From: Candidatus Woesearchaeota archaeon
GTDB taxonomy: Archaea; Nanobdellota; Nanobdellia; Pacearchaeales; GW2011-AR1
Assembly (NCBI GenBank): GCA_964528865.1
Contig: CAZGTS010000001.1
Span: 1 to 26,866, forward strand
Direction of reading: 5' to 3'
DNA length: 26,866 nt
Notes under the pieces: model-generated
Told to the model about the DNA's origin: nothing
The model's input: only the letters and a program-made list of their open reading frames with translations
Database searches by the model: none
Position numbers and translations under genes: made by a program
Shown: piece by piece, positions 10,327-26,866 of the stretch
How positions within the stretch are numbered: the stretch's first letter is position 1
How the letters are laid out: each line of letters opens with the position of its first letter

Positions 10327-11613
10327 TCATTTATCTTTAGATTTCTTTTTATCTGGTTTATTCTGTTGGTAATTTTTCCGAACAACATAGTTCACTGGAT
10401 TTTTTATCATCTTGCAAAAATTGTCTGGTTGGCAAACGCCGATTCCTTCATAGAATTCTTTACAGTTTTGGGGCATAATTGGTTTTCTTGCATAGCTCCA
10501 AGAAAGTTGGGATGTTATGTAACCTTGCGTTAAAGGAGAGGCATTTTTTTTATTCCATTCTTCAATTTTCTTTTCAAGTTCTTCCTTGTCCATTCCAATA
10601 GAACGGAACAAATTTATCAAAACAAACAATGCTCTTTTTTTCCCATCTACAAGTCCCTTTAATATATTCTGCACACAAGGAGGAAAATTTTCTTCAGACA
10701 AGTTGTCCAGTTTGATTGGTTTGAAATTTGCATATTTTCCTTTTATTTTTTCTTTGTCTTCTCCTGATTCAATTTCATTTTGCTTTGCCCAATCAAGTGC
10801 TTGCATTAAAAGTTCAGAGGCTTCTCCTTCTTTAGAGTCTGGCATAAAGTTCTTAATTTTTATTTTCATCGGGTCTGCATCTTTTGGCTGGAATTTAGAA
10901 ATTTTTTCTGGGTCTAAAACAACACTTGCTAATGCTGTTTTCTCGTGGAGAGAATAAGGCATTCTAAATAAATGCCGAGAGGAAACTAAAACCAAATCAG
11001 GCATTACTTCTTTTGGGGCTTGGAAATCTTTTACATATTTGTTTGGTCTTTCCAAGTCGCTGATTTTTTCAATTAACTGGGCTTTTGTTTTTTCCATAAT
11101 GTATTGGGTTATAATTCTTGGATATTTAGGGAACATTGTTGAAGTTTTTATCTCATTGATTTCTTTTGGGAAAGCTTTCCATGGAACAATTATGTGAAAT
11201 CCTTTTGAACCTGAAAATTTAATTCCGATGTTTTTTACTCCGTGAAATTTTAATATTTGAATTATTACTTCTGCAGAAATTTTTGAATAATCAATGTATT
11301 TGCTGTCAATGTCAATTATTAAATCCCAGCCAGTTCGCAGTTCATTTGTCTGTTGGGGGTTCATGCCTGTTACAATGTTTAAAGGTTCTTGCCAAATTTC
11401 TTCTGAACAATGAAAAGATGTTGCACCTTTTTTAACTAACTCTAAAATGTCTCCAATATACTGAAATATATCTGGGCGTTTTCCAAAACCTTCAAAATAC
11501 CTTGGGCAAATTTCTCTATTTTTTGAGAATTCAAAAATTGCTTTTTGAACTTCTGGTTTAGAATAATATATATGAATTATATTTTTTATTCTTTTTTCTT
11601 TGTGTGAAAGCAT
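10327..11613 (-). CDS. priS: DNA primase, fused catalytic (PriS) and Fe-S (PriL C-terminal) domains
   Basis: AEP motifs DLIIDID, FSGSKGFH and RMPYSLHEKT, then a PriL-CTD-like FPPC...C...C...C cluster in one 428-aa chain. Confidence 0.9.
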   Translation of the reverse strand: MLSHKEKRIKNIIHIYYSKPEVQKAIFEFSKNREICPRYFEGFGKRPDIFQYIGDILELVKKGATSFHCSEEIWQEPLNIVTGMNPQQTNELRTGWDLIIDIDSKYIDYSKISAEVIIQILKFHGVKNIGIKFSGSKGFHIIVPWKAFPKEINEIKTSTMFPKYPRIITQYIMEKTKAQLIEKISDLERPNKYVKDFQAPKEVMPDLVLVSSRHLFRMPYSLHEKTALASVVLDPEKISKFQPKDADPMKIKIKNFMPDSKEGEASELLMQALDWAKQNEIESGEDKEKIKGKYANFKPIKLDNLSEENFPPCVQNILKGLVDGKKRALFVLINLFRSIGMDKEELEKKIEEWNKKNASPLTQGYITSQLSWSYARKPIMPQNCKEFYEGIGVCQPDNFCKMIKNPVNYVVRKNYQQNKPDKKKSKDK

Positions 11614-12647: not shown

Positions 12648-13484
12648 ATGAATAGAGATAAAAAATCAAAAATTTTTTATCCCGCTCGCTCGCCCAGGCG
12701 TGGTCGAACGAAAGAGGGACAAGTAACTATTTTTATAATTATTGGTATATTATTCATTACAGCAATTATGCTTTTTTTCTTTCTTAGAGAAGACCTTCTT
12801 CCTGGAACAGGAGGAAAATCAGAAGAAAATCCTGGAGGGTTTTTAGAAATTTGTATAGAAGACAAATTAATAGAAGGAACTAAATTGATTTCTTCACAGG
12901 GAGGGTACATTGAAAATCCTCTTAACAGAACTTTTAAGTTTAGTGATGAAAATGATTTTACCGATATTTCTTATTTGTGTTATAATCAAAATAATTATTT
13001 CTCTTGCATAAACCAAGAACCAATGTTAATACAACATTTGAAAGCAGAAGTAAAAACATATGTTTTTGATGATGTTCGGACTTGTTTTGATAATTTAGTT
13101 TTAAGTTTAGGTAAAAGGGGTTATGTTGTTGATGCAACGTATAATGGATTTGAAATTGAGTTTGCGACAAAAAAAATTATTATTGATATTGACGGAAAAA
13201 TTATTTTAACAAAATCTGATGAGACTACAAGACAGGAAAATCTTAAAATAATTTTTCCGAGCAGGTTCTATGATTTGGCTGGCGTTGTGCAAGAAATAGT
13301 TAGTCAAGAAGCAAGGTTTTGTAATTTTGAGAATTTGGGATTTATGGCATTTTATCCTAAGTTTAATATAGAAAGATTTAGAATAGGGGATGGAACAATA
13401 ATTTATACTGTTAAACATTTGGAGACTCAAGAAGAATTTAAATTTGCCATAAGAGGTTGCATTATACCTCCAAAAATATTTTAA
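12648..13484 (+). CDS. Class III signal-peptide (archaeal pilin-like) protein, 278 aa (start revised from TTG 12576)
   Basis: ..KEG/QVTIFIIIGILFITAIMLFFF; TATA-like ATTATAAG at 12619 is 29 nt before ATG 12648; paralog of 17322-18092. Confidence 0.8.
   Translation: MNRDKKSKIFYPARSPRRGRTKEGQVTIFIIIGILFITAIMLFFFLREDLLPGTGGKSEENPGGFLEICIEDKLIEGTKLISSQGGYIENPLNRTFKFSDENDFTDISYLCYNQNNYFSCINQEPMLIQHLKAEVKTYVFDDVRTCFDNLVLSLGKRGYVVDATYNGFEIEFATKKIIIDIDGKIILTKSDETTRQENLKIIFPSRFYDLAGVVQEIVSQEARFCNFENLGFMAFYPKFNIERFRIGDGTIIYTVKHLETQEEFKFAIRGCIIPPKIF
12683..12711. repeat. REP-like hairpin copy 1 (in the prepilin leader-coding region)
   Basis: CGCTCGCTC-GCCCAGGCGT-GGTCGAACGA; the last 20 nt match 26515-26534 at 19/20. 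Confidence 0.75.
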
Positions 13485-13496
13485 TTTAAACAAACA

Positions 13497-16400
13497 ATGA
13501 AAAAAGCAAATACTAAAAAAATAGAAATTATTTCATTAATAATAGTTATTTTACAAATATTTTTGTTAATGAATTTAGTTTCCTCAAATAGTTATCTTAT
13601 TCATCAAGCTGATAAGTCTTTAGAAAATTTAAACACTATTGATGAGGAAAAAAGTTTTAACAATTTGATTAACTCTGGGTTGAATTTATTAAGTGGTATT
13701 TTGTCTATAAAACAAATAGGAATTGTTTCTGCAGAAGTGTCAGAAGTTCCTCAATATTGTTGTTCTAAATCTAATGGAGAAGATGTCTGTTCAGATACCT
13801 CTGACCCTTTTTCTCCTTGTGATGTTCCAATACTCAGTGGAACTTGTGAACAAAATAATTGTATGAAATGTTGTCCTGAAACTAATGAAGGAGAATTTTG
13901 TAAAGATGTTTCAATGCTTTTTGAAGATTGTGCTAGACCATTAATTGATGGAAATTGTCTTGATATTGATTGTATAAGCTGTTGTCCAAAGACAATTGAA
14001 GAAGAATTTTGTAAAGATGTTTCTAAATTTCATCAAGATATTTGTTCAGATGAATATCCTTTATATTCAACGAATTGCCAAGCAATTAATTGTAGAAAAG
14101 TAGTTTTAAATGATCCTAATATACCTCCACAAGATCCTTTAGATTTAGATATTAGTTGGAATTGCTGTTCTGAGTTGGAAGATGGTTCTATTTGTCAAGA
14201 CATTGCTTCAATTACTCCTGAACTTTGTTCTGTTTCGCCTTTACCAACAAAATGTGAAGATACTGTAAATTGTAAACTTGGATGTTGTATTGATGAAGAA
14301 GAAGGTTTATGTGCAACAAAAGCTTCTAAACAAAAATGTGAAGAAGGTGGGGGAGAATGGGATAATGATTTCAATTGCTTGATTCAGGAATGTCAAAAAG
14401 GATGCTGTGTTTTAGGAAATAATGCGGAATTTGTTACAGAAACAAGATGTGACAAACTTTCAATATCTTGGGGTTTTGAAAAAGATTTCAAAGAATATTT
14501 AAAAACAGAAATTCAATGTCTTGCTCTTGTTGCTAATACTTCTACAGAATCTTGTATTGGTAATAATTGTGTAACTCCAGAAAAAAAAGATTGCATTGAT
14601 GAAAAAGGAGATGTAAAAAAAGACGGGGAAAGTTGGTGTTCTTATGAAGGCTATATTGGTGATGGAAAAGACACTGTTGGTAGCAGGCACTGGAAACAAT
14701 CTTGTGTTGATGGTGAAATTGTAAATGAAGGGTGCCAAGATTATAGAGGATATATTTGTGCTCAAACAATAATGGAAGAAGGCTCATTAAAATTTTCTAT
14801 GGCTTCCTGTGTTCCTAATGAAGCAATTTTATGTTTAGGATATAATAGTGACCAAGCAACTATGGGGGAAAATTGTAATGAAAATAAACATTGTATGATT
14901 AAAAACATTTATGTTGATTCATATTTTAAGTTTGATGTTTGTGTTGGAAGGTATCCTCCAGGAATTAAAGATTACTGTTCAATGGCTAGCCAGACATGCA
15001 CTGTGATATATGTGAAGGATTGGAAAGGAAGTTGGAAATGTGAAAAAAACTGTAATTGTGAAAGACAAGTATTCCCAGAACAAATGAATAATTTGTGTAT
15101 TTCTATGGGAGATTGTGGTAGTTATATTAATTATATTGGAAATGGGACAGATAATATAAAAGTTACAAATGCTCCAATGATTTCTTGGAAAAATTATAAA
15201 AATTATGTGAACTTAGTAGCAGGGCAATTTGTAGAACCGCAAGACATAGATAAATTTTTATCTTCTTTAACAGGAACAAGTACAACTCTTCCTGGAGAAG
15301 AACCTGATGGTTTTAATAAAGGTGTTAAATTTTTAGGACAGATTATAGGAGCAGCAGGTAGTTTAGTTAGTGCGAGTATGTTTCTAGGATCAATGGTTCC
15401 ATCGATGTCAATTGTAGTTTCACCAGGTGTTTATGCAGGTCTTAGCGCATTTTCAGGAGCAGCAGCTGGAGCAGCAATTGGTGCAATGGCAGGAGCATAT
15501 CTTGCAAAAGCTCTTGGAATATCAGGAATTGCTGCAACTGTTATGATGGTTGCAGGAGCAGTCGCAGGAGCTGTTATCGGAGCATGGGCGGTAGGAATGG
15601 CAATTCCAGTGGTAGGTTGGGTAATTGCCATAATAGCAGTACTAATTATGATTTATATTGCGCTTATTGGTTGGGGAAAAACAAAAGAAATAAAAGTTAA
15701 ATTTGAATGCATGCCTTGGGAAGCTCCTGTTGGAGGAAGTGATTGTGAAAGATGTCATGAAGATGATTCAAAACCTTGCACAAAATATAAATGTGAAAGT
15801 CTTGGGCAAACATGTAAATTATTAAATGAAAATGAAGAAAACCCGATTTGTGAAAGTATAGCTCATGAATCAAATCCTCCAGTGATTTCTGCAGGAGATA
15901 TTTTTAATTATACTCATCTATTAAATAATCCATTAAATCCCTTTAAGATTGATTTTAATTATAAATTCCAGAAGGAAAAAACAAAATATGTAGAATTAAA
16001 ACAAAGTAATGGGAAATGTATTCAAGAATTCACGCCTATCTTGTTTAATTTAAATACAGATGAGTTTGCTCAATGCAAATATAGTTTTCAAAAAACCAGC
16101 CTATTTGAAGAAATGGAAGAATATCCTCTTGAACAAACTAAATTTGGAATAAACCACACTTTTAAATTTAAAATGCCAAGTTTAAGTCACTTAGAGGTTT
16201 ACAATATTAGTGAAGACTTAAAAGAAAGTTTTGGAAACTTGAACATGTATGTAAGATGCCAAGACTATCAGGGGAATTTTAATATAAATGAATATATAGT
16301 AAACTTCTGCATTAATTCAGAACCAGACACAACTGCTGTTAATCATGAGTTTACAATTACAAATCCTAAAAACAAATATTTTTTGAAATATGGAACAACA

Positions 16401-17237
16401 CAACAGGACATGAAGATGCGGATAAACGAACCAGCAGAATGTAAGTATGATATTATCCCAGGAATAGATTATGATGCTATGATAAATTCAATGACATGCA
16501 ACTGGATGTCTGAAGAAGAAGATAATTGGTTATGCAATACAACTTTAAGTGTAAGTGGTGGAGAAAATAAATTTTATATTAAATGCAGAGATAAACCTTG
16601 GTTTGATTATCTTGAGACAGATGAAGAAAGAGAAAAATACAAAGGACGAAATACTAATGTCAATGATTTTATTTATACTTTACATGTAACAGATAAAGAA
16701 TTAATAATAGATTCAATTACTCCTAAAGGAACTTTGGAATTTGGGTTTGAACCAGTTTCTGTTGATTTGGAAGTCAAAACTTCTGGCGGAGTAGATAATG
16801 GAAATTCTAAATGCTCTTATCAGTGGGCAGGAAATTGGATTCAGTTCTTGAGTACTTTTTCAAATTCGCATACTCAGCCAGGAGTAAATTTAATGAGTGG
16901 GAATTTTAATACTCCAATAAAGTGTGAAGATGATGTAGAAAATGTTGTTTATGGAAATGCCGTGTTCAAAATAGAAGTGGATTCAGAACCTCCAATTGCG
17001 GTGAGGGTTTTTTATGAAGGAGGTGACCTTAAATTAATTACAGATGAAGAAGCAAAATGTTATTATGATTTTAATAGTTGTGATTTTAATCTTATTAATG
17101 GAAGTTCTATGTCTTCTTCACTTTCAATAGAGCATTCTGCAAAATGGAGTGTAGGACAAACGCATTATATAAAATGCGAAGATTTTTGGGGAAACACAAA
17201 TCCAACTTGTGCAATTAAAGTAGAACCAAGTAATTAA
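13497..17237 (+). CDS. Giant secreted/membrane Cys-rich protein with a central Gly/Ala-rich hydrophobic region and C-terminal FN3/Ig-like repeats
   Basis: N-terminal hydrophobic signal, many CC/CxxC motifs, a ~119-aa hydrophobic Gly-zipper stretch (aa 609-727) and repeated (T/I)(N/D)E.A.CK(Y) beta-sandwich-like motifs. Confidence 0.8.
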   Translation: MKKANTKKIEIISLIIVILQIFLLMNLVSSNSYLIHQADKSLENLNTIDEEKSFNNLINSGLNLLSGILSIKQIGIVSAEVSEVPQYCCSKSNGEDVCSDTSDPFSPCDVPILSGTCEQNNCMKCCPETNEGEFCKDVSMLFEDCARPLIDGNCLDIDCISCCPKTIEEEFCKDVSKFHQDICSDEYPLYSTNCQAINCRKVVLNDPNIPPQDPLDLDISWNCCSELEDGSICQDIASITPELCSVSPLPTKCEDTVNCKLGCCIDEEEGLCATKASKQKCEEGGGEWDNDFNCLIQECQKGCCVLGNNAEFVTETRCDKLSISWGFEKDFKEYLKTEIQCLALVANTSTESCIGNNCVTPEKKDCIDEKGDVKKDGESWCSYEGYIGDGKDTVGSRHWKQSCVDGEIVNEGCQDYRGYICAQTIMEEGSLKFSMASCVPNEAILCLGYNSDQATMGENCNENKHCMIKNIYVDSYFKFDVCVGRYPPGIKDYCSMASQTCTVIYVKDWKGSWKCEKNCNCERQVFPEQMNNLCISMGDCGSYINYIGNGTDNIKVTNAPMISWKNYKNYVNLVAGQFVEPQDIDKFLSSLTGTSTTLPGEEPDGFNKGVKFLGQIIGAAGSLVSASMFLGSMVPSMSIVVSPGVYAGLSAFSGAAAGAAIGAMAGAYLAKALGISGIAATVMMVAGAVAGAVIGAWAVGMAIPVVGWVIAIIAVLIMIYIALIGWGKTKEIKVKFECMPWEAPVGGSDCERCHEDDSKPCTKYKCESLGQTCKLLNENEENPICESIAHESNPPVISAGDIFNYTHLLNNPLNPFKIDFNYKFQKEKTKYVELKQSNGKCIQEFTPILFNLNTDEFAQCKYSFQKTSLFEEMEEYPLEQTKFGINHTFKFKMPSLSHLEVYNISEDLKESFGNLNMYVRCQDYQGNFNINEYIVNFCINSEPDTTAVNHEFTITNPKNKYFLKYGTTQQDMKMRINEPAECKYDIIPGIDYDAMINSMTCNWMSEEEDNWLCNTTLSVSGGENKFYIKCRDKPWFDYLETDEEREKYKGRNTNVNDFIYTLHVTDKELIIDSITPKGTLEFGFEPVSVDLEVKTSGGVDNGNSKCSYQWAGNWIQFLSTFSNSHTQPGVNLMSGNFNTPIKCEDDVENVVYGNAVFKIEVDSEPPIAVRVFYEGGDLKLITDEEAKCYYDFNSCDFNLINGSSMSSSLSIEHSAKWSVGQTHYIKCEDFWGNTNPTCAIKVEPSN

Positions 17238-17321
17238 AATAAATTTATAAAGCAAATATAAAATTTCCATTATAAATATTTTCAAGAAAATATTTATAAA
17301 CAAGGTTATCCTAAAATTAAT

Positions 17322-18092
17322 ATGAGGTGTATGGAAAAAAAGAATGGGCAAGTTACAATTTTTATTATAATTGGAATAATAATTATAGCGTTTGGAATTT
17401 TAATTTATGTATTTTATCCTCAGATTAAAACAACACTTGGGTTTGAGACAGATAATCCTTCTGCATTTATTCGAGAATGTTTAGAAGAAAAAATAGTAAA
17501 TGATTTAGAAGTATTGTCTTTGCAAGGGGGAAGTTTGGAACCTGAACATTATATTTTGTATGACAATGAAAAAGTGGAATATTTATGTTACATTGAAGAA
17601 TATTATAAAACTTGCGTGGTGCAACAGCCAATGTTAAAGAAACATATTGAAGCTGAGATTAAAGAAAGCATTCAGGAAAGAGTAACAGAGTGTTTTGATA
17701 ATTTAGAAAAAAATTATGTTAGAAAAAATTATGCTGTAGAATTAAAAGGGAGCGGTGGAGAAATTGAGTTGCTTCCGAAGAGAATTGTTGCTACATTTAA
17801 TCGTTCTCTTGTTTTGACGAAGGATGGGACAGAAACCTATAATTCGTTTGATGTGATTGTTAACAATAATATTTATGAACTAGTTAGTGTAGCAAATAGT
17901 ATAATAAAATGGGAAACAAGTCTTGGGGATGCAGAGACAACCACTTACATGAATTATTATCATGACCTGAAAGTTGAGAAAAAGAAACAGTCAGATGGTT
18001 CAACTGTTTATATCTTGACTGACAGGAACAATGGAAATAAATTTCAGTTTGCGTCGAGAAGCATTGCTTGGCCTCCTGGATTTGGAATTTAA
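17322..18092 (+). CDS. Class III signal-peptide (archaeal pilin-like) protein, 256 aa
   Basis: MEKKNG/QVTIFIIIGIIII; shares QGG, YLCY, Q.PML..H, CFDNL and F.FA.R motifs with 12648-13484; TTTATAAA 29 nt upstream. Confidence 0.85.
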   Translation: MRCMEKKNGQVTIFIIIGIIIIAFGILIYVFYPQIKTTLGFETDNPSAFIRECLEEKIVNDLEVLSLQGGSLEPEHYILYDNEKVEYLCYIEEYYKTCVVQQPMLKKHIEAEIKESIQERVTECFDNLEKNYVRKNYAVELKGSGGEIELLPKRIVATFNRSLVLTKDGTETYNSFDVIVNNNIYELVSVANSIIKWETSLGDAETTTYMNYYHDLKVEKKKQSDGSTVYILTDRNNGNKFQFASRSIAWPPGFGI

Positions 18093-18093
18093 A

Positions 18094-19527
18094 ATGGAAA
18101 ATAAATTAATTTTAATAATCTTGGGAATTTTCTTAATTAGTTTTGCTTCTGCTGTTGGAGAAGTTTCATATTGTTGTGAAAAAACAGTTGCAGGTGCTTG
18201 GTGTCAAAATGCTCCTGAAGAACAATGTTCAACCGCTGTTGATTCTTTTACAAATACTGCTTACAAAAAAGTTCCGGCTTCTTGCGAGGCGACCTCTTAT
18301 TGTAAATTAGGAACTTGCATTAGCGAAGGAGATTGCATGGAAAACACTCCTGAAAGAAGATGTGATAAAGAGTTAGGAGGATATTGGGAAGGAAAAGACG
18401 CAGATGAAATCCCGCAGTGTGAATTAGGATGTTGCTTGATTGGAGACCAGGCAGCTTTTGTTACGCAAACACGATGCAAAAAATTATCAGCAGTATATGG
18501 CTTGCAAACTAATTTTAGAATAGACCTTACAAATGAATTAAGTTGTATTGCTTCTGCAATGTCTGATGTAAAAGGGGCTTGTGTTTATGAAAAAGATTTT
18601 TCAAAGACCTGCCAGTTCATAACTAAAAAAGAGTGTTCAGAATCAAGTGCTGGAAACAACACAGAGTTTTATGAAGGAATTTTGTGCTCTGCTGAAACAT
18701 TAGGAACTGATTGCGGGAAATCTAAAGAAACAACTTGTGTTAATGGAAGAGATGGAGTTTATTTTGTAGACACTTGTGGAAACTTGGCAAATATTTATGA
18801 TTCTTCAAAAATAAATAATAAAGAATATTGGACAAATATTTATGGTGAAGGAGAAAGTTGCAACCCAAGTTCATCAAATGCGAATTCAGTTAGTTGCGGA
18901 AATTGTGATTATTATTTAGGAAGTACTTGTGAAGATTATAAATTAGCAGGAAAAAAAGCTACTTATGGAGACAATATTTGCAAGGATTTGAGTTGTAAGT
19001 ATGATGGGAAAAGTTATGAACATGGGGAGACATGGTGTGCAGACAGCAACGGCGTTAAAGAGAATTTGCCAGGAAGCAGATATTTTAGATTAGTGTGTTA
19101 CAATGGAGAAGTCAGTGTTGAACCGTGTGCAGATTTTCGGCAGGAAACTTGTATTCAGTCGGACATTGGGGGATTTAAAACAGCGGCGTGCAGAGTAAAT
19201 ATGTGGCAGGATTGTGTTGCACAAGAAAATAAAAAAGATTGCGAGAATATTGATAGAAGAGATTGCAAATGGCAAGAAGGGAAATGTATTCCGTTATATG
19301 CTTCTGGTTTTAATTTTTGGGAAACAGAAGGAGATGCTAAACCAATATGTTCATTGGTAAGTCAAACTTGTGTTATAAAATATGAAAAAAAATTAGGTGG
19401 AGATAAAAAGTGTGTTGAGAACTGCGAGTGTCTTGACGCGTCGTGGGAAGATAATATGAATAAAATGTGTATTTCTATGGGGGACTGTGGAGAAAAGACA
19501 AATTATCTTGGATATAAAGGTTTTTGA
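18094..19527 (+). CDS. Secreted Cys-rich protein, homologous to the N-terminal half of 13497-17237 (start revised from 18031)
   Basis: Signal peptide from ATG 18094, 1 nt after the upstream stop; shared GCC..G..A.FVT.TRC.KLS, GE.WC and CISMGDCG...NY.G motifs. Confidence 0.85.
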   Translation: MENKLILIILGIFLISFASAVGEVSYCCEKTVAGAWCQNAPEEQCSTAVDSFTNTAYKKVPASCEATSYCKLGTCISEGDCMENTPERRCDKELGGYWEGKDADEIPQCELGCCLIGDQAAFVTQTRCKKLSAVYGLQTNFRIDLTNELSCIASAMSDVKGACVYEKDFSKTCQFITKKECSESSAGNNTEFYEGILCSAETLGTDCGKSKETTCVNGRDGVYFVDTCGNLANIYDSSKINNKEYWTNIYGEGESCNPSSSNANSVSCGNCDYYLGSTCEDYKLAGKKATYGDNICKDLSCKYDGKSYEHGETWCADSNGVKENLPGSRYFRLVCYNGEVSVEPCADFRQETCIQSDIGGFKTAACRVNMWQDCVAQENKKDCENIDRRDCKWQEGKCIPLYASGFNFWETEGDAKPICSLVSQTCVIKYEKKLGGDKKCVENCECLDASWEDNMNKMCISMGDCGEKTNYLGYKGF

Positions 19528-19555
19528 GAATTTATTAATTTATAATTCTGTCCTC

Positions 19556-19586
19556 ACTTTAAAGTAATCAAAAGATTTAAATATTC
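19556..19586 (+). promoter_or_regulatory. Duplicated BRE/TATA promoter block, copy 1
   Basis: ACTTTAAAGTAATCAAAAGATTTAAATATTC, 31/31 identical to 21502-21532; TTTAAATA is 29 nt before ATG 19605. Confidence 0.75.
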
Positions 19587-19604
19587 AAAACACATTTACA
19601 AACC

Positions 19605-20033
19605 ATGACTAAAAACTCACAAGAGGTGAGAAATGGAAAACCAAGTCGTTTGACGACATTGTTATTAGCTGGTTCTATGTTAGTTGGGTTGGGTTCTATT
19701 AGTGGATGTATAACACCACAAGGAAGACAATTCATTAACACTATGGGTTATACTGCTGCAGGAACTTTTGTCAAAGGAAGTGTTAGAAAAGAAATGGGGC
19801 ATCGTGATTATCAAAATAAACAGGGAACAGCACATCGTAGAGGACAATACTTTATTGTTGTGAATTTAGCAACAGGAGAAAGTAAAACTATTGACGGACC
19901 CCATTGGAGACTTTATACAAAAATAATCAAAACTAAAAAAAGAGATATTTATCCAGAAGGATTTAAAATGTTTCGTTATGATGTAGATGGTGACCATTGT
20001 GCAACAGTTAGTTGGAATGGGAAGGGTAATTAA
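19605..20033 (+). CDS. Putative lipoprotein A (lipobox-like ISGC)
   Basis: Basic N-region, hydrophobic h-region, SISG-C; the first 38 codons from the lipobox are ~96% identical to 21557-22186. Confidence 0.7.
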   Translation: MTKNSQEVRNGKPSRLTTLLLAGSMLVGLGSISGCITPQGRQFINTMGYTAAGTFVKGSVRKEMGHRDYQNKQGTAHRRGQYFIVVNLATGESKTIDGPHWRLYTKIIKTKKRDIYPEGFKMFRYDVDGDHCATVSWNGKGN

Positions 20034-20074
20034 AATTTACAAAAATTTATAAAAATATTTTCTTTGTTTTTAAT

Positions 20075-20182
20075 ATGAATAAAAGAGGAATTGCACTTTG
20101 TCAAATAATTATTTTATTATCCTCTATAGTTGCGTTTAGTTTTATTTTGAATATTGGAGTTGTGGCAATTAGTTTTATATAA
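20075..20182 (+). pseudogene. Truncated gene remnant: signal peptide only, paralog of the 22287 N-terminus
   Basis: MNKRGIALCQIIILLSSIVAFSFILNIGVVAISFI* resembles QIYLMIVSVISFSFILNIDLVIA; the same AAAAATTTATAAA promoter lies 29 nt upstream of both. Confidence 0.65.
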
Positions 20183-20188
20183 AACTAA
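20169..20188. repeat. Perfect 20-bp palindrome at a convergent junction
   Basis: TTAGTTTTAT|ATAAAACTAA, containing the stop codons of both converging ORFs. Confidence 0.8.
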
Positions 20189-20552
20189 AATCAATATCCA
20201 ATGTAAATGATTCTCTTTTTCCAGAAAAAAATCTAGATAAGATATTTGGTCCTCTTCTTTTAAAAGAAACATTAACACTATCTAATTTTGATAATTTTCT
20301 TTCAGAAAGATTATTCAAATAAGCCTCTGCGACAGAGTATCCTCTGCAATTTCCGATTTGAGCTGTTTGGTCTCTCGCATAACTTTTTAAAATTTCTGCT
20401 GCTAAAAAAGGATTTCTTCTTCCTAAAGCAGTTTCAGGACTTTCAGGAATAGGAACAGGATTAAAAGAATTAGTCCAAGGGTCGGGCATTCCTGGATACA
20501 TTATTTCTGGATTAATACTTCTTTTAACTATTTCATTCATTTTAATATCCAA
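20175..20552 (-). CDS. Hypothetical protein, paralog 3 of a tandem triplet
   Basis: PESPETALGRRNP...RGYSVAEAYLNNLSERKL domain shared with the two upstream ORFs. Confidence 0.7.
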   Translation of the reverse strand: MDIKMNEIVKRSINPEIMYPGMPDPWTNSFNPVPIPESPETALGRRNPFLAAEILKSYARDQTAQIGNCRGYSVAEAYLNNLSERKLSKLDSVNVSFKRRGPNILSRFFSGKRESFTLDIDFSFI

Positions 20553-20994
20553 AACTAAAATTTACTTTATTTAGGTTATGACGAGCATCCCATCTAGAAT
20601 ACTTTGGTGAAAATGAAAATTCAAAAAAGTTTATTTTTGTAAGTGCTTCAGAAGATAAATCATTTAAATAATTTATCGCCCGATTAAATCCATTTTTAAT
20701 TTCAATTTTTTCTTCTAATCCTCTTCTCTCAGAATGATTTGAAGAATCACTAAGTGTAGGTCCTCTACTTAAAATTGGCAGAGGTTCTGTCCTATAATTA
20801 TTTAATCCTTCTCTATTTCTTATTATGAGTTCCACTCCTCCTGGAAAAAAGTTTTTTTCAAAATATTTCCATATTCCTTTATCCAATATTCCAAAACTCC
20901 ATTCTTTTATTTTAGAAGCAGGAGCATAATAAACAGATTCTCTTCTAAGAAAACTACTTATTCTTTTACAGAGATTTGAAATATATTCTATCAT
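20542..20994 (-). CDS. Hypothetical protein, paralog 2 of a tandem triplet
   Basis: ILSRGP...KNGFNRAINYLNDLSSEAL aligns with the shared domain; start and stop overlap the neighbours. Confidence 0.65.
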   Translation of the reverse strand: MIEYISNLCKRISSFLRRESVYYAPASKIKEWSFGILDKGIWKYFEKNFFPGGVELIIRNREGLNNYRTEPLPILSRGPTLSDSSNHSERRGLEEKIEIKNGFNRAINYLNDLSSEALTKINFFEFSFSPKYSRWDARHNLNKVNFSFGY

Positions 20995-21455
20995 CTTTTA
21001 ATTTTAATTTTTAAATTATATTCTTCTCCAGAAGAAAAAAATCCTAATCCTATACTTCTTTCCAATGTAACTCTAACACCTTTAGCATCATCTAATGCTC
21101 CTTTAGGTAAAGTGTTCAATATTTTTTCTGTAGTTAAATATCCTCTGTTCAATGATTCTTGGTAGGTTCTTTCTTTAGATAAATCTTTCATTAAATCTGA
21201 TGCAGTTTTAGAGTCTCTCCTTGCAATGGAGGTTCCAGGGCTTTCAGGATAAATAGAGTTTCTTTCTTAAATTGTTTCTCCACTTCCCCCACAATCTTTG
21301 TCTAAAACTTCTCTTCCTGCAATTCCTACAGCAACTGCTCCTGCTATACCAAGATAAAGAGGCATGAATGGTCCAGTTAAAGGGGCTACTACTAATGTTG
21401 CAATCCCAATTCCTCCAAGTTTCTTTCTAAAGCTTTTTTCATTCGAAGATGCCAT
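20991..21455 (-). pseudogene. Membrane-anchored paralog 1, interrupted by a single in-frame TAA at 21267-21269
   Basis: ORFs 21267-21476 and 20991-21191 are in the same frame; the 25 intervening codons read ERNSIYPESPGTSIARRDSKTASDL, homologous to paralog 3. ATG 21455 is 29 nt from CTTAAATA. Confidence 0.8.
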
Positions 21456-21501
21456 AAAAATCCTACCACTCCACACTATTTAAGGATTATTGTGATGTGT
21501 T

Positions 21502-21532
21502 ACTTTAAAGTAATCAAAAGATTTAAATATTC
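21502..21532 (+). promoter_or_regulatory. Duplicated BRE/TATA promoter block, copy 2
   Basis: 31/31 identical to 19556-19586. Confidence 0.75.
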
Positions 21533-21556
21533 TAAACTCCCCTATAAATTAATAAA

Positions 21557-22186
21557 ATGTCAAGAAAATTAACAAATCTTATTGGAGCTGGTTTATTTGC
21601 AGTAGGTGGTATGGGGTTGTTAAGTGGATGTATAACACCACAAGGAAGACAATTTATTAACAGCCTGGGTTATACTGCTGCAGGAACTTTTGTCAAAGAA
21701 AGTGTTAGAAAAGAAATGGGGCATCGTGATTATCAATCACAGCAAAGAAAAGAAAATAGAACTTATGTTCCAAAGGGATTACGACCTGCACAATTAGAGA
21801 GGGCTTTTTTTGCTTGTAATTATTGGAAAGACTTTAATAATGATGGAACAACTAATTATCCAGAGGAATATGTTGGAATTAAAAATAAATTTAGAGACTA
21901 TGAAACAATAGTTTTAGTTTTACATGATGGAGTTGGGGAGAGGGGAACTAAAATAGTCCAAAAAATTTTCAATCCAAAAGGAGAAGAGATTTATAATGTT
22001 GAAAAGATTTTTTCTCAAAAAGGTTGTTCAGTAATAATGGGGATTAACGGTGATGCTATGGGGTGGTTGATTGAAAAAGGGGGTTATGGAAATTTTAAAT
22101 CTGTTTGGTATATTAATAATGCTTATGCCGATTCAACTGAATTTGAAATAGTCCATTCAGAACAAACTAAAAAACTTGATAAGTAA
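21557..22186 (+). CDS. Putative lipoprotein B (lipobox-like LSGC) with a beta-rich C-terminal domain
   Basis: GLLSG-C; shares CITPQGRQFIN..GYTAAGTFVK.SVRKEMGHRDYQ with 19605-20033, then unrelated sequence. Confidence 0.7.
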   Translation: MSRKLTNLIGAGLFAVGGMGLLSGCITPQGRQFINSLGYTAAGTFVKESVRKEMGHRDYQSQQRKENRTYVPKGLRPAQLERAFFACNYWKDFNNDGTTNYPEEYVGIKNKFRDYETIVLVLHDGVGERGTKIVQKIFNPKGEEIYNVEKIFSQKGCSVIMGINGDAMGWLIEKGGYGNFKSVWYINNAYADSTEFEIVHSEQTKKLDK

Positions 22187-22286
22187 TTTATCTAATAAGA
22201 ATTTGAAGAAACTATTCTAAAACATAATAATTTTAAATGATTGTGAGTAATGAAAAATTTATAAATAACAATTAACTAATTCTTCT

Positions 22287-24284
22287 ATGAAAAAGAGATT
22301 AATAAAAAGTATTTCTTTATTTCAAATTTATCTAATGATAGTCTCTGTAATCTCTTTTAGTTTTATTTTAAATATTGATCTTGTTATTGCAGAGGTTCCT
22401 GAAATAAAAGTTCTCCCAACAGGAAGTTCAACTGCCTCAGAATATTTTGGAATAAAGCCTCTTGCAGAAGGGAAGAAAACAGCAGAATTTTTTTCAGGCA
22501 CTGTTGGAGGAGGAGCAGATGCAATAGTTTCTGGAGCACAATATGCGTTGATAGTTGTAGGTGTAATACAGATGATCGCACCAATGTTAGGAGCAGATTC
22601 AGCTTTAACAAATGCATTATCAGTTTCTCTTGGTACTGGTGTTTTTATTGGAAAAGGATTATATACTTTATTAGGAGAAGGGGGAACGTGGAGTTCGTGG
22701 ACAACTAATGCAGGATCATGGTCCATCGCAGGAGGAGTAGTAACTGCAGCAGTTATTTTTTATATGATGTACAAATCTGAAGAAACAGAAACAAAAATAT
22801 TCACGTGCGAGGCTTGGCAAGCTCCGACAGGTGGAAGCAATTGCGAGAAGTGCAATAAGCAAGGGGAACTTCCCTGTTCTGAATATCAGTGTCGGAGTTT
22901 AGGGCAGTCTTGCGAGTTGTTGAATCCTGGAACTGAAGAAGAACAATGCACATGGGTTAATAGAAACGACGTGAATCCGCCTGTGATGAAACCATTAGAG
23001 AGTGCGTTGCTGAATAATTATGTTTATTCTCCTGACAATACAATTTCTCCTCCTGATAAAGGAGTTAAAGTGCAGAACAAGGCATTGGCTTCAAAATGTG
23101 CAGAGGCTTTCACACCTTTGACATTTGGTATAATCACAAACGAACCTGCACAATGTAAAATTTCTCCTTTAAGAGAAAAAAGTTTTGAAGACATGGGGCT
23201 TTATTTTGGGGGCAGCAATTCATTCACTTACAACCACACGCAAGTTATGATTTTGCCTGGAGCAGAAGCACTTGAAGCAGAAGGACTAACATTGCAAAAC
23301 AACGGGAACTTTGAAGTTTATGCGAGATGCCAAGATGCAAATGGCAACGCAAACACCGCAAACTTTGTGTTCAAGTACTGCGTAGAAAAAGGCCCAGACA
23401 CAACACCGCCGTTAATTGTATCAACGAACTTATTAAACAATATGCCAATTGCATTTGATCAATCCTCAATAGATTTAAATATTTACACAAACGAACCTGC
23501 AGATTGTAAATGGGATTATTTAGACAAAGCTTATGATAATATGGACAATACATTCACCTGCTCAAAAAACATATTTCAAATGAATGCACAAATGCTTTAT
23601 CCTTGCTCAACAACATTAACAGGTTTGAAGAATGAATTCAAAAATAAATTTTATTTTAGATGCAAAGATTTATCTGAAAATACAAATGCAGAATCCTATT
23701 TATTTACTTTACTTGGAACAAAACCATTGGTAATTGATTATGTTTCGCCAGATGCAGAAACAATAAAAGACTCAACAGATATTGTTCAAGTAACATTAAA
23801 AGTTGAAACATCTGCAGGCTATAACGACGGGGAATCAGCATGTTATTATAGCGACACAGGAACAGAAGATAGTTATGTTCTATTCGGTAATACAAATTCC
23901 CATCAACATTCTCAAGAATTATGGTTTAATGCTGGTACCTATGAGTATTTTATAAAATGCCTTGACCTTGGAGGAAATACCGATGAGAAAACAATAAACT
24001 TTGATGTGGAATCTGATGTCACAAGTCCGTTAGTTGTCAGGGTTTATCATGAAGATAAATATTTAAAATTAATAACAAACGAAAAAGCAGAATGTGTTTA
24101 TGACACAACAAGTTGCAGTTATACTTTTGAAGACGGGATAAAAATGGCTAACATAGACGGTATAACTCATTACACAGACTGGAACACTCAAACAAATTTT
24201 TACATTAAATGCAAAGATTCTTATGGTAACAAACCTTTTCCAGATAAATGTAATTTAATTGCTAAACCTTCTCAGATATTTTAA
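22287..24284 (+). CDS. Secreted/membrane Cys-rich protein, homologous to the C-terminal half of 13497-17237
   Basis: Own signal peptide, hydrophobic Gly-rich segment, C..W.AP.GGS.CE.C....PC..Y.C.SLGQ.C.LLN and TNEPA.CK repeats; TTTATAAA 29 nt upstream. Confidence 0.85.
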   Translation: MKKRLIKSISLFQIYLMIVSVISFSFILNIDLVIAEVPEIKVLPTGSSTASEYFGIKPLAEGKKTAEFFSGTVGGGADAIVSGAQYALIVVGVIQMIAPMLGADSALTNALSVSLGTGVFIGKGLYTLLGEGGTWSSWTTNAGSWSIAGGVVTAAVIFYMMYKSEETETKIFTCEAWQAPTGGSNCEKCNKQGELPCSEYQCRSLGQSCELLNPGTEEEQCTWVNRNDVNPPVMKPLESALLNNYVYSPDNTISPPDKGVKVQNKALASKCAEAFTPLTFGIITNEPAQCKISPLREKSFEDMGLYFGGSNSFTYNHTQVMILPGAEALEAEGLTLQNNGNFEVYARCQDANGNANTANFVFKYCVEKGPDTTPPLIVSTNLLNNMPIAFDQSSIDLNIYTNEPADCKWDYLDKAYDNMDNTFTCSKNIFQMNAQMLYPCSTTLTGLKNEFKNKFYFRCKDLSENTNAESYLFTLLGTKPLVIDYVSPDAETIKDSTDIVQVTLKVETSAGYNDGESACYYSDTGTEDSYVLFGNTNSHQHSQELWFNAGTYEYFIKCLDLGGNTDEKTINFDVESDVTSPLVVRVYHEDKYLKLITNEKAECVYDTTSCSYTFEDGIKMANIDGITHYTDWNTQTNFYIKCKDSYGNKPFPDKCNLIAKPSQIF

Positions 24285-24285
24285 G

Positions 24286-24320
24286 AAAAGTAAATCAGCT
24301 GTACAGGCAAGATTTTCATT
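24286..24320. repeat. Intergenic repeat, copy of 26486-26509 carrying an 11-nt insert
   Basis: AAAAGTAAATCA-[GCTGTACAGGC]-AAGATTTTCATT versus AAAAGTAAATCA-AAGATTTTCATT; both lie right after a stop codon. Confidence 0.7.
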
Positions 24321-24381
24321 ACTTATTTTAACAAAAATGAAAAATGGCTAAACTTATAAATCTTAATTTTCTTATTTCTTT

Positions 24382-25347
24382 ATGAAAAAAGGTGAGAAAA
24401 AATTAAAAATTTTTCCTACCATTCGTCCACGCTTGGGTAGTCGAACGAGAGGTTATTTACAAATATCTTTTACTTGGCTCTTTTCAATTATTGCTGGAGC
24501 AATTATTTTGTTTCTTGTTATTTTTATGACCTCGAAATTAATTAGCACAGAGCAGATGACTTTAAACGCAAAAACTGGAACAGAAATTGGTATTTTGTTG
24601 AACCCAATTGAAATGGGTTTTGAAAGTGCAAAGTCCACGACAATGACCTTGCCTGTTGAAACAAGAATTATTGCAAAATGCGAAGAAGATAACCAATTTG
24701 GGAAACAAATTATAAATCTATCACAAAAGAACCTTGGCGAATGGACTGTGACAAATATTGAAGCTAAATTCACAAACAAATATATTTTCTCAAAAAATCT
24801 TGAAGGGGAAACATTTTACATTTTTGTAAAGCCGTTTGAGTTGGGGTTCAAGGTTGCTGATTTGATTTATATGACTTCTTCTAAAAAAGAATATTGCTTC
24901 GAAAATGCTCCAGAAAACATTAAAAAAGAAATTGAATTTTTGAACCAAAAAAATCTTGTTACAGAAAATTGTCAAGAAGACTCTATTGAAATTTGCTTTA
25001 GTGGTTCTTGCGAAATTAAAGTTAATTATAATTCAAAGTATGTAATTAAAGAAGGGAATAGAATGTATTTTAGTGACGATGTTTTAATGTATGCGGCTAT
25101 TTTTTCAGATAGTGAAGTTTATGAATGCCAAGTAAAAAGATTGATGCAAAGAACAGCGAATCTTGCTTTATTGTATAAAAACAAGGCGAATTTTGTTTCT
25201 AATAGAGGATGTAATTCTAATTTGAATTTGTTGGGATTAAAAAATGCTGCGGAAGATTTAAGAAATTCTGCAGAGCTAAAATCAGTTAATAGTATTGCAG
25301 AAGATATTAATGATTTAAATAAATTTGCAGAGTGTAGGCTATGGTAG
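24382..25347 (+). CDS. Class III-like signal-peptide (pilin-like) protein, 321 aa
   Basis: Basic leader ..RTRG-YLQISFTWLFSIIAGAIILFLVIF; CTTATAAA 29 nt upstream. Confidence 0.75.
   Translation: MKKGEKKLKIFPTIRPRLGSRTRGYLQISFTWLFSIIAGAIILFLVIFMTSKLISTEQMTLNAKTGTEIGILLNPIEMGFESAKSTTMTLPVETRIIAKCEEDNQFGKQIINLSQKNLGEWTVTNIEAKFTNKYIFSKNLEGETFYIFVKPFELGFKVADLIYMTSSKKEYCFENAPENIKKEIEFLNQKNLVTENCQEDSIEICFSGSCEIKVNYNSKYVIKEGNRMYFSDDVLMYAAIFSDSEVYECQVKRLMQRTANLALLYKNKANFVSNRGCNSNLNLLGLKNAAEDLRNSAELKSVNSIAEDINDLNKFAECRLW
24420..24448. repeat. REP-like hairpin copy 2 (core inverted)
   Basis: CATTCGTCC-ACGCTTGGGT-AGTCGAACGA; arms as in 26506-26534, core is its reverse complement at 9/10. Confidence 0.75.
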
Positions 25348-25940
25348 TCAAAATCTCACTTCGTTCAATCTGGTTCGCCCAAGCATGGTCAAACCAAAGA
25401 ACTGATTCAATCGCACAAAATAAAAAAGCGCAAATGAAAATACAGCAAATGGTATTTATGTTGCTTGCGGCTACATTATTTTTTGCACTAGTTGGAATGC
25501 TTTTGTTGGCTTTGAAATTTTCAGGATTAAAAGAATCAGCAACAGAGCTTGAGGAAAAAAATGCCCTGCTTCTTGTAACAAAGATTGCAAACTCCCCTGA
25601 GTTTTCATGTGGTAGCGCATTTGGAAACCTTAAGACTAATTGTGTTGATGCTGACAAAGTTATGATGTTGAAAAAAAATATAGATAAATATGATAATTTT
25701 TGGGGGAAAGAGACGAACATAGAAATAATTAAAATCTACCCCGAAGGGAATGTGGTCTGCACCATAGGGAACTACCCTAATTGTAATCTTATAAATTTGC
25801 AATCAAAAAAAATAAATATAGAACATTCAAATTTTATTTCATTATGCAGAAAGAATTTAATTAATGGTGAAGTTCATGATAAGTGCGAGTTGGCAAAGAT
25901 AATTGTAAGTTATAAAGATTGGCGTGAAAATGATGATTAA
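25341..25940 (+). CDS. Class III signal-peptide (pilin-like) protein, 199 aa
   Basis: ..NKKA/QMKIQQMVFMLLAATLFFALVGMLLL; overlaps the upstream stop. Confidence 0.8.
   Translation: MVVKISLRSIWFAQAWSNQRTDSIAQNKKAQMKIQQMVFMLLAATLFFALVGMLLLALKFSGLKESATELEEKNALLLVTKIANSPEFSCGSAFGNLKTNCVDADKVMMLKKNIDKYDNFWGKETNIEIIKIYPEGNVVCTIGNYPNCNLINLQSKKINIEHSNFISLCRKNLINGEVHDKCELAKIIVSYKDWRENDD
25368..25396. repeat. REP-like hairpin copy 3 (in the prepilin leader-coding region)
   Basis: Core GCCCAAGCAT-GGTC with TGGTT/AACCA arms. Confidence 0.65.
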
Positions 25941-26481
25941 AACAACGAAGAATAAATCTGGACAGAAGCAGAAATCGAAGATTTCTCCATTTGCCAAGAA
26001 TAAATCTGGACAAGAGGAACTTATTGGATTTGTCCTAATTATAGTTTTAGTTGCAATTATTGGATTAATTTTTCTTGGGTTCTCTTTAAGGAGTCCTCAG
26101 AAAGAGATAGTTGAAAGTTACGAAGTTGAGAGCTTTATTCAGGCATTTTTGCAATACACTACAGATTGCGGGAATTATAGAGAAAATTATCTGCCACTTC
26201 AAAAATTAATCTCTGCGTGTGTTGATAAAGAAACTTGTTTAGATGAAAGAGAAAGTTGTGATGTTTTAAATTTTACATTGACTGGAATGATTGAAAATAG
26301 TTGGAAAGTGGAAGGAGATAGACCAATTCAAGGTTATGAATTAAAAATTGTGTTAGAAAATGGGACAGAAGTAATCCCTTTGATTAATAATGGGAATAGC
26401 ACGAAGAATTCTAAAGGGGTTTCACAACCTTTTACACCTCTTGGAGAAAATTATGAAGTGACTTTCATAGTTTATTATTAA
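25930..26481 (+). CDS. Class III signal-peptide (pilin-like) protein, about 183 aa
   Basis: KNKSG/QEELIGFVLIIVLVAIIGLIFLGF; the leader motif KNKSGQ is duplicated. Confidence 0.8.
   Translation: MMIKTTKNKSGQKQKSKISPFAKNKSGQEELIGFVLIIVLVAIIGLIFLGFSLRSPQKEIVESYEVESFIQAFLQYTTDCGNYRENYLPLQKLISACVDKETCLDERESCDVLNFTLTGMIENSWKVEGDRPIQGYELKIVLENGTEVIPLINNGNSTKNSKGVSQPFTPLGENYEVTFIVYY
25948..26012. repeat. 17-bp direct repeat flanking a 31-nt hairpin insert
   Basis: AAGAATAAATCTGGACA at 25948-25964 and 25996-26012, with GAAATC-GAA-GATTTC between them; 48-nt period keeps the frame. Confidence 0.8.
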
Positions 26482-26614: not shown

Positions 26615-26866
26615 CTACACTTTCAAATGAATAGTAATTGTATCTACAACTATTTTTGGTCTGTATCTTATTCTGTTCTTTGTCTTTTCCTCTATTAATT
26701 CTATAAAGCCAAATCTCTCTAAAAGTTTGATATCATCATTCACAGATTTAAATCCTCTACCTAATTTTTTAGCTAACTCATAAATTGACTTGGGTTTTTC
26801 TGTTTTTATTGTGTGTAAAATCCTGGCTTTCTCATTACTCAAAAGCTGTCTTAAAGCTAAAACCCC
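26615..26866 (-). CDS. Winged-helix/HTH transcriptional regulator, COG4190-like (5' end outside the window)
   Basis: The frame stays open to the window edge (GVLALRQLLSNEKARIL); KSIYELAKKLGR.FKSV..DIKLLERFGFIEL is an HTH plus wing. Confidence 0.75.
   Translation of the reverse strand, partial: GVLALRQLLSNEKARILHTIKTEKPKSIYELAKKLGRGFKSVNDDIKLLERFGFIELIEEKTKNRIRYRPKIVVDTITIHLKV

Follow-up and report, generated by a model that had tools for sequence, protein, structure and literature searches.

What kind of surface structure is encoded by the large run of genes at positions 12648-26481 of the stretch of DNA analysed here (26,866 nucleotides of a Candidatus Woesearchaeota contig, hereafter the window), and do these genes build a single machine? 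The Pace- and Woesearchaeota rank with the most widespread archaea still uncultured; their metabolic repertoires are very small, and to our knowledge no attachment or exchange machinery has been identified for them. Published size-fractionation data indicate that Pacearchaeota appear strongly host-attached. The first-pass annotation of the window had described this stretch as a large uncharacterised surface apparatus of pilin-like proteins and paired cysteine-rich giants, from a DPANN (Diapherotrites, Parvarchaeota, Aenigmarchaeota, Nanoarchaeota as well as Nanohaloarchaeota) archaeon. Both the surface-directed character of the set, which has no family matches, and the lineage, which homologs and matching stretches place with the Pace-/Woesearchaeota, were confirmed by our analysis. 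We propose that the genes form one operon that most likely builds one multi-subunit cell-envelope complex, scaffolded by pilin-like proteins and bearing two adhesin-like giant proteins, a reading that we hold with moderate confidence. Host recognition or contact, which the first-pass annotation had put forward, is a plausible candidate function of this complex. Few conserved gene sets specific to the lineage are as large in the small Pace-/Woesearchaeal genomes as this operon, which has a reach of hundreds of species. Its families are undescribed: they have no relative in curated family libraries or among PDB sequences, and the only structural neighbours found for them are generic immunoglobulin (Ig)-like arrays.

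We first describe the layout of the operon (coordinates in Table 1). Its genes are co-directional on the plus strand in the order A-B-C-D-[slot]-K-L-M-N, within AT-rich archaeal DNA (GC content of the window about 31%), and span about 11 kb, the slot between D and K being extra. The core genes (A to D and K to N) are separated by 1-100 nucleotides or overlap, the sole exceptions to this arrangement being four minus-strand orphan open reading frames (ORFs) in the slot. This order does not bear out the interleaving of pilin-like proteins with giants that had been described. Two modules, each of a pilin-like protein and a giant, had also been proposed; B is indeed one giant, and A and C are paralogs (30% identity, E 7e-38), but the second giant is split into D and K around the slot, whose six small ORFs had gone unmentioned. 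The count of five class III signal-peptide proteins holds as a total (A, C, L, M and N), which includes the pair of about 260-280 amino acids (aa) instead of adding to it.

The conservation of the locus across DPANN archaea, which the first-pass annotation had left to be mapped, proved extensive. Our scan covered one genome for each GTDB species. ORFs from 82 related loci were called and grouped by family hidden Markov models (HMMs), and gene order was read in 79 distinct fetched loci. In the scan, 479 confirmed stretches encode a relative, and nearly all of the 79 loci share the order A/C-type, giant, A/C-type, N-half, [slot], C-half, L', L, M, N, where L' is a further family that is absent from the window operon and present in relatives. 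An A-type gene always stands upstream of a B-type giant and a C-type gene always upstream of a D/K-type giant; where a third module occurs, it is a duplicated A+B pair. Homologs are numerous: B has 172 (about 1200-1390 aa, none of them named, in bins of Pacearchaeota, Woesearchaeota and 'Nanoarchaeota'), A has 339, all unnamed, and C has 1520, while a combined A/C profile matched 576 clusters (50% identity) at E<=1e-30. The gene order of the window, including the slot, was reproduced in four independent salt-lake metagenome assemblies, and the 278-aa call for A was likewise found in four independent assemblies.

To characterise the pilin-like proteins, we aligned the N-termini of family members on their conserved hydrophobic motifs. 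In the window the leaders read RTKEG↓QVTIFIIIG (A), MEKKNG↓QVTIFIIIG (C), RTRG↓YLQISFTWLF (L), NKKA↓QMKIQQMVFML (M) and KNKSG↓QEELIGFVLI (N), the arrow marking the putative cleavage site; the leader of C is complete and the others are shown from within. Across the A/C, L', M and N families, 82-92% of members have K or R at position -2, and 100% have G, A or S at -1, the exceptions at -2 in the window being C (N) and protein N (S). Gln at +1 is found in 100% of members of A/C, M and N, and in 80% of those of L'. The pattern is less strict in family L, with K or R at -2 in 87%, G or A at -1 in about 64% (a value that depends on the alignment anchor) and Y, G, A or F at +1. Every family has a conserved hydrophobic stretch, and positions +1 to +12 are nearly invariant inside each family, with the consensus Q-V-T-I-F-I-I for A/C, x-L-E-I-S-F-x-W-L-F-A-I for L (also written Y-L-E/Q-I-S-F at the start of the mature helix), Q-L-K-I-Q-Q-M-A-F-M-L for M and Q-E-E-M-V-G-F-x-L-I for N. 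Judged by sequence, this pattern carries the signature of archaeal prepilin-type (class III) signals. It is also specific to the locus, as the strict leader motif occurred in only 6 of 742 non-locus ORFs around related loci, five of which are L' orthologs missed by the HMM. The helices carry fixed polar residues, namely T+3 (A/C), E+3/S+5 (L), K+3/Q+5/Q+6 (M) and E+2/E+3 (N), and these exceed the needs of a plain membrane anchor. Compared with the FlaFind-type pattern, which we take to require apolar residues at +2 to +4, A/C (Q-V-T-I-F) fit, and L, M and N are charged or polar at +2/+3.

The five proteins had been called longer than typical pilins. This applies to A, C and L; M and N, when mature, would measure about 169 and about 156 aa, the usual length of a pilin. 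L has 8 invariant Cys and is related over its first 80 or so residues to the 165-aa L' family (HH probability 95.6%). In profile-profile comparisons A/C matched N weakly (86% over 53 columns), and the pairs A/C and L, M and N, and M and L' were unsupported. The AlphaFold2 (AF2) model of C, built from a 122-sequence alignment, has a mean predicted local distance difference test score (pLDDT) of 88.3 and a predicted TM-score of 0.76, and shows a membrane helix at 8-31, a low-confidence break at 34-42, a second helix at 46-68 and then an alpha/beta domain. A Foldseek search of this model against PDB returned no pilin among its neighbours (best TM-score 0.16), and nothing above 0.19 was found in PDB and BFVD together. 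The pilin-like status of the 260-aa proteins is thus upheld by a pilin-type leader and not by the globular domain, which in the C model matches no pilin structure. Two minor features concern the leaders themselves. The leader of N (25924-26040) contains a tandem duplicated cleavage-site motif (KNKSGQ...KNKSGQEEL) and would be about 29 aa, unusually long, if translation starts at 25924; that of M is about 30 aa, against 6-12 aa in its orthologs.

Are these proteins parts of one assembly? The overlapping co-directional genes, the type-specific pairing and co-duplication, the invariant helices and a gene order kept despite only 61% identity in PCNA together argue for one physical complex. A different explanation would be that there is no joint machine and that the locus encodes independent membrane-anchored or secreted surface proteins sharing a signal-anchor style and an inherited order. 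We regard this as very improbable. In its favour, interaction between the products is so far presumed, and Cys-rich surface proteins abound in DPANN genomes, with several unrelated examples just upstream in the window; nevertheless, independent proteins would leave unexplained why A is paired and co-duplicated with B, and C paired with D/K, why reading frames overlap in L/M/N and D/K, why family-specific polar helix residues superfluous for a plain anchor are near-invariant, and why gene order persists across lineages whose PCNA proteins are about 61% identical.

The scaffold of such a complex could in principle be a true type IV pilus, to which this operon would be accessory: L', L, M and N would be minor pilins priming a long filament, the motor would be encoded elsewhere, and the giants would be PilY1-like tip adhesins docked via A and C. 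We consider this unlikely. Class-III-type leaders in five or six families fit such a scheme, as does the set of one large (about 310 aa) and three small (about 165-175 aa) proteins, which resembles the GspH-K or FimU-PilVWX sets. On the other side, the ATPase, platform protein and peptidase are never linked to the locus, no abundant short major-pilin gene is evident, and DUF2341, vWA and beta-propeller domains were not found (Pfam search of B, D and K). The N-terminal helix and the core of three to four helices in the giants are incompatible with a position on a pilus tip, and in the C model a low-confidence linker replaces the continuous alpha-1 helix of pilins. Since the giants have membrane helices of their own and the locus never occurs with an assembly motor, we favour a short pseudopilus-like or membrane-embedded bundle as the scaffold of the proposed complex.

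Neither a T2SSE-type Walker A motif nor an A24 GxGD motif was present in any ORF of the 82 loci, no assembly-ATPase or platform Pfam family appeared in the annotated neighbourhoods, and the earlier observation that the window holds no ATPase or prepilin peptidase therefore extends to all 82 related loci. Ten operon proteins scanned against Pfam and NCBIfam had no match, and a PHROGs scan gave nothing significant. Profiles of A/C, the giants, L, M and N had no match among PDB sequences. When the A/C profile was searched against 1.84 billion representatives, the 150 matches listed were all proteins of the same architecture, and none of them bridged to a known family.

Bacterial counterparts are the FimU-PilVWX-PilY1 operon and the GspH-I-J-K pseudopilus tip in type II secretion. 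Like these, the operon has about four pilin-like proteins, one about twice the size of the others, beside a protein of about 1100-1250 aa, and has polar or charged residues near the start of the mature helix. It differs in showing no sequence or fold similarity to them and in that its mature proteins would start with Gln and not Phe/Met and are without Glu5; moreover, the operon giant is an integral membrane protein, in two paralogous copies, each with its own 260-aa partner. The Sulfolobus bindosome consists of class III sugar-binding proteins and small pilin-like BasABC proteins, with its own ATPase and membrane protein (BasEF). It shares with the operon the class III leaders on large non-pilin globular proteins near the membrane and the small pilin-like helpers; it differs in having BasEF and recognisable solute-binding cargo in its locus, and no giants.

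The concept nearest to the operon is found in the models that Makarova, Koonin and Albers (2016, PMC4858521) gave for type IV pilus loci of archaea; the FimU-PilVWX-PilY1 operon and the bindosome also come close, by analogy. The archaeal loci combine several minor pilins with two large putative adhesins, and include S-layer-like proteins as well as components rich in Cys (PMC4858521), and the methanococcal Epd-type model, with two large proteins near several minor pilins, can be cited in favour of the pilus explanation. The operon resembles them, for example the Epd-type loci, in combining class III proteins with two large secreted or membrane proteins and a nearby S-layer gene, and, as in Thermoproteales systems (PMC4858521), in having conserved cysteines in most components. 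It differs in that no ATPase, TadC/FlaJ or peptidase is linked, in that its giants lack DUF2341 and have a central helical membrane core, and in that none of its families matches arCOG-derived Pfam/NCBIfam pilin models. The operon thus falls outside these systems, the bacterial ones and the bindosome included, both by its lack of ATPase and platform genes and by every sequence-family comparison. Published statements on DPANN type IV pilus genes conflict: components were stated to be missing from DPANN genomes (10.1101/2020.05.14.094862), and FlaIJK was reported in a related Nanoarchaeia order (PMC8561730), the latter report favouring a motor encoded elsewhere.

We then analysed the giants. B contains 74 Cys in 1246 aa and D 43 Cys, most of them in nearly invariant columns. 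From its N-terminus, B comprises a hydrophobic helix with a conserved Gln, the Cys-rich N-ectodomain, a helical core, a 7-Cys knot and an Ig-like array. The AF2 model of B (residues 47-1246; model numbering +46 gives B numbering) has a mean pLDDT of 78.6. The N-domain is modelled at pLDDT 81-96 over model residues of about 170-540, with a dip to about 41-54 at 303-317 (B 349-363), and most of the C-half at 84-96 (model residues of about 690-1200). Core helices are predicted at model residues 560-586, 597-626, 631-652 and 659-678. The core is 30% Gly+Ala, has no Cys and carries glycine-zipper-like motifs (AAxGxAIGxxxGxxLA...AGxVAGA). The membrane-insertion-like core noted earlier is therefore real as a Gly/Ala-rich hydrophobic segment, amounting to three confident helices and one weak one, the first. 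In the C-half the Ig-like domains keep Cys pairs at 'A.C.Y' and 'Y.K C.D..GN' motifs; judged by where they lie in the sequence, these may be the cysteines of strands B and F that form the canonical Ig disulfide. Foldseek aligned B with tandem arrays of Ig, FN3 and cadherin type (E as low as 2e-12), and it is the C-half that they cover; these matches are generic (TM-score relative to the query 0.07-0.16, about 10% identity), and the N-half, Cys knot and helical core were absent among the neighbours listed. In these models the giant C-half thus appears as a beta-sandwich chain like that of Ig/cadherin-like adhesins (PTP-delta, desmoglein and the Aureispira grappling-hook protein GhpA), a likeness that is generic and at the level of fold only. 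The Big_13 family (PF19077) scored below threshold in K (14.7 bits against a cut-off of 27), and a precomputed PF19077 match was present in 1 of 120 homologs listed. Neither the C nor the B model resembled an S-layer or housekeeping protein, a resemblance that the first-pass annotation had named as one that would count against it.

The distal N-terminal part of the giant is less uniform. B 86-200 (13752-14096) consists of three tandem 6-Cys modules of about 37 aa (CCPxT..EFCKDV...) modelled at pLDDT below 50, and B is without a segment of about 150 aa (CEKQ...CGNCN...CKDL) that D and most orthologs possess. These repeats and the missing segment indicate that the distal part varies by gain and loss of modules.

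The second giant is two genes, since D matches only the N-half of B and K only the C-half. D aligns to B 223-548 only and ends exactly at the start of B's helical core; it has a Sec-type signal peptide with the cleavage site FASA↓VGE. K aligns to B 586-1233 only (30% identity, E 3e-81) and begins with a hydrophobic helix that contains the conserved Gln and is homologous to the N-terminal helix of full-length giants; a Gly-rich core, Cys knot and Ig-like array follow. The split was found in all 38 loci holding both halves, and in 14 of these the two genes abut or overlap by 1-4 nucleotides. D and K are fused to one gene in L058, L069 and L070, and a B-type giant is split at the same boundary in L018. 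A further observation on K concerns its start. In nine loci (L006, L007, L013, L022, L028, L029, L034, L038 and L045) the K-type orthologs begin [KR]-G-x-x-A-x-S-Q-I-x-I-L, which looks like a class III signal in sequence; the window K (MKKRLIKSISLFQIYL) and the full-length giants keep the Gln-containing helix and the Gly is absent.

On which side of the membrane do the two halves of the giant lie? The N-half is placed outside by the Sec signal of D, by dozens of near-invariant Cys and by the depletion of N-glycosylation sequons (N-x-S/T). These occur at 0.23-0.50 of the frequency expected from composition in C, D, L, M and the B N-ectodomain (giant N-half about 0.4), compared with 0.91-0.95 in cytoplasmic controls, 1.0-1.1 in the giant C-half and an enrichment of 1.7 in protein N. 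For the C-half, the Cys pairs of the Ig-like domains speak for an outside location, which we hold to be probable.

The Gly/Ala-rich core between large ectodomains, with its GxxxG-type zippers, also invites a reading as an intercellular channel or membrane-fusion device, in which the glycine-zipper core would either oligomerise to a pore or enter the membrane of the partner, while the pilin-like stalk served as piston or conduit, giving cytoplasmic bridges. Such bridges, together with an unidentified 21-nm barrel complex under the S-layer, have been described in another DPANN lineage (PMC11329633). We find this reading very unlikely: the core is the least conserved part of the giants (27% identity), no energy source, secretin-like domain or fusogen-like fold was found in the locus, and the reported barrel belongs to a different phylum. 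Distinctly unlikely, too, is a self-contained ATPase-independent contact organelle restricted to Woese-/Pacearchaeota, in which a stalk of pilin helices would position the two giants, their detachable Cys-rich heads would bind the host envelope and their glycine-zipper cores would give rise to, or nucleate, a conduit across the envelope; if true, it would provide the molecular basis of DPANN attachment and exchange.

For the favoured complex, pilin-scaffolded and carrying two adhesin-like giants, we propose the following assembly. A, C, L, M and N (with L' in relatives) would be inserted by Sec and cleaved after G/A/S by a PibD/FlaK/EppA-type peptidase encoded elsewhere, so that the mature proteins would typically start with Gln. 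Their N-terminal helices would pack together, either as a short stalk like a pseudopilus or as a hetero-oligomer embedded in the membrane; an extended pilus is less likely. Each giant would have a dedicated 260-aa partner, namely A for B and C for D+K; the genes are paired throughout, and contact between the products is presumed. The giant, probably held in the membrane by its N-terminal helix and the glycine-zipper helical core, would display the Cys-rich, disulfide-bonded N-domain, which may also serve as a separately secreted subunit as in D, and would most likely also expose the Ig-like string outside. The assembled structure may reach into or through the S-layer, and could bind a partner cell or substrate, organise the envelope, or both. 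The operon offers concrete targets for surface labelling, for expression studies and for apparently new folds (D, and the globular domains of A and C), and it bears on whether class III signal peptides in DPANN archaea serve non-filament assemblies.

Several points weigh against this complex or parts of it. In none of the 82 loci do the surrounding 10 kb encode an assembly ATPase, platform protein or prepilin peptidase, no Pfam/NCBIfam pilin or class III model matches A, C, L, M or N (E<=0.1), and archaeal class III signals do not usually have polar residues at +2/+3, as L, M and N do. In the C model, a flexible linker appears to part the membrane helix from an alpha/beta domain matching no pilin. 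The reported lack of pilus components in DPANN genomes noted above also counts here, and no usable RNA-seq run was found for expression of the operon. Three observations are also compatible with an alternative, less probable topology of three core helices and a cytoplasmic C-half: the first core helix is modelled at pLDDT <40, the Lys-rich loops both satisfy the positive-inside rule only with three core helices, and the C-half is without sequon depletion, so that for this half the sequon test is ambiguous.

The genomic setting raises one more explanation. In relatives, the wider order is two Cys-rich surface proteins, primase, PCNA, A-type, B-type giant, C-type, N-half, 0-7 variable genes, C-half, L', L, M, N, an opposite-strand winged-helix regulator and then an S-layer protein (PF05124), a family that scored above its threshold in 5 of the 6 downstream S-layer candidates tested. 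In the window, genes for a fused PriS/PriL-type primase and PCNA stand immediately upstream of the operon. Because the locus adjoins an S-layer gene, a housekeeping envelope scaffold is a live rival: the complex would anchor or space the S-layer, or organise the cell's own pseudo-periplasm, with no direct host recognition. We judge this doubtful, while taking it seriously. The locus is near-universal, single-copy and fixed between replication genes and the S-layer gene. Across genomes its proteins show 37-50% pairwise identity against 61% for PCNA, the ectodomains (40-50%) being moderately and evenly conserved and the N-ectodomain core and Cys knot of the giants best of all, and C is 61-88% identical over its best 120 homologs. 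Such moderate, even conservation argues against a hypervariable host-specific adhesin; at the sequence level it seems to fit a conserved ligand or structural role better than a fast-evolving host specificity. What speaks against a mere scaffold is that tandem Ig arrays with a detachable Cys-rich head are typical of adhesins and not of known S-layer anchors, that A+B duplications and the variable length of the distal N-terminal repeats suggest diversification, and that the locus proteins themselves contain no S-layer domain (Pfam). The literature searched for the locus contained no description of it, and we found no mention of it under the terms searched in a study of lineage-specific archaeal families.

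The slot between D and K is a hotspot for variable genes, the junction holding 1-7 ORFs in 24 of 38 loci. Most of these encode lipobox proteins (..L[AS]GC; E and J among them) or toxin-antitoxin-like pairs (MNT/HEPN, RelE-like). Lipobox proteins are unusual in archaea of such lineage. E and J are 69% identical over 65 aa and share direct repeats of 47 nucleotides upstream (87% identical) and 155 nucleotides of 5' coding sequence (85% identical), within 19556-19835 and 21502-21757, which bracket the minus-strand orphan block (20175-21476). For the orphans F to I, neither a homolog among the 82 loci nor a match in Pfam or PHROG was found. Contigs of a related freshwater population (run X23) cover much of this block sparsely or not at all. 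We considered whether the slot is a disruptive insertion in the second giant and rejected this, because the split is conserved and often has a 1-4 nucleotide overlap in relatives. A viral or mobile origin of the locus was rejected as well, given its fixed chromosomal synteny and the lack of PHROG matches.

Table 1. Positions of the operon genes, their parts and neighbouring genes in the window.
Feature	Position	Strand	Length	Description
A	12648..13484	+	278 aa	class-III leader; partner of giant B
B	13497..17237	+	1246 aa	giant
B N-ectodomain	13752..15176	+	aa 86-560	53 Cys; conserved core aa 216-560
B helical Gly/Ala-rich core	15312..15668	+	aa 606-724	four predicted helices, first low-confidence
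B C-half	15702..17234	+	aa 736-1246	Cys knot (C-x2-C ... C-x4-C ...), then four to five Ig-like domains
C	17331..18092	+	253 aa	class-III leader; partner of split giant
D	18094..19527	+	477 aa	secreted N-half of second giant
Variable slot	19528..22286		2.7 kb	six small ORFs
E	19605-20033	+		lipobox protein
Orphan ORFs F to I	20175-20552, 20542-20994, 20991-21191, 21267-21476	-		four ORFs between E and J
J	21557-22186	+		lipobox protein, paralog of E
K	22287..24284	+	665 aa	C-half of second giant
L	24382..25347	+	321 aa	class-III-like
M	25341..25940	+	199 aa	class-III-like; 7-nucleotide overlap with L
N	25924..26481	+	185 aa	class-III-like; 17-nucleotide overlap with M
Winged-helix regulator	26615..26842	-		HVO_A0114-type, Pfam PF25212, E 1.5e-14; cut by window end
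Surface protein	3730-5094	-	454 aa	signal peptide, repeated Cys-rich modules
Surface protein	5319-7160	-	613 aa	signal peptide, repeated Cys-rich modules
Lipase/alpha-beta-hydrolase-like ORFs	7964-8446 and 8425-9267	-		apparently one gene with a frameshift
Cys-rich protein	9264-9938	-	224 aa	10.7% Cys, repeated C-x-C-rich modules, C-terminal membrane anchor
Primase	10327-11613	-	428 aa	single protein

Downstream of the operon, the regulator is 117 aa long in fuller assemblies. All assemblies with the locus stop within about 250 bp past the regulator, at the place that the S-layer gene takes in relatives; strain-level variation in this gene may be what breaks the assemblies. Upstream, the 224-aa Cys-rich protein has no Pfam match and no homolog among the 82 loci. 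The lipase-like pair has its motifs divided between the two frames (...AHSMG in the upstream ORF, GTPHHG in the downstream ORF) and a Cys-rich N-terminal part (22 Cys); the two-ORF state was seen in independent assemblies too. In the primase, the PriS domain covers residues 113-234, and a PriL-like region at 269-387 lies just below the Pfam threshold; its length in relatives ranges from about 410 to 1375 aa. The 454- and 613-aa surface proteins both end in a C-terminal membrane anchor with a basic tail and are syntenic upstream of the primase in 35-40 related loci, and they may belong to the same surface gene neighbourhood.

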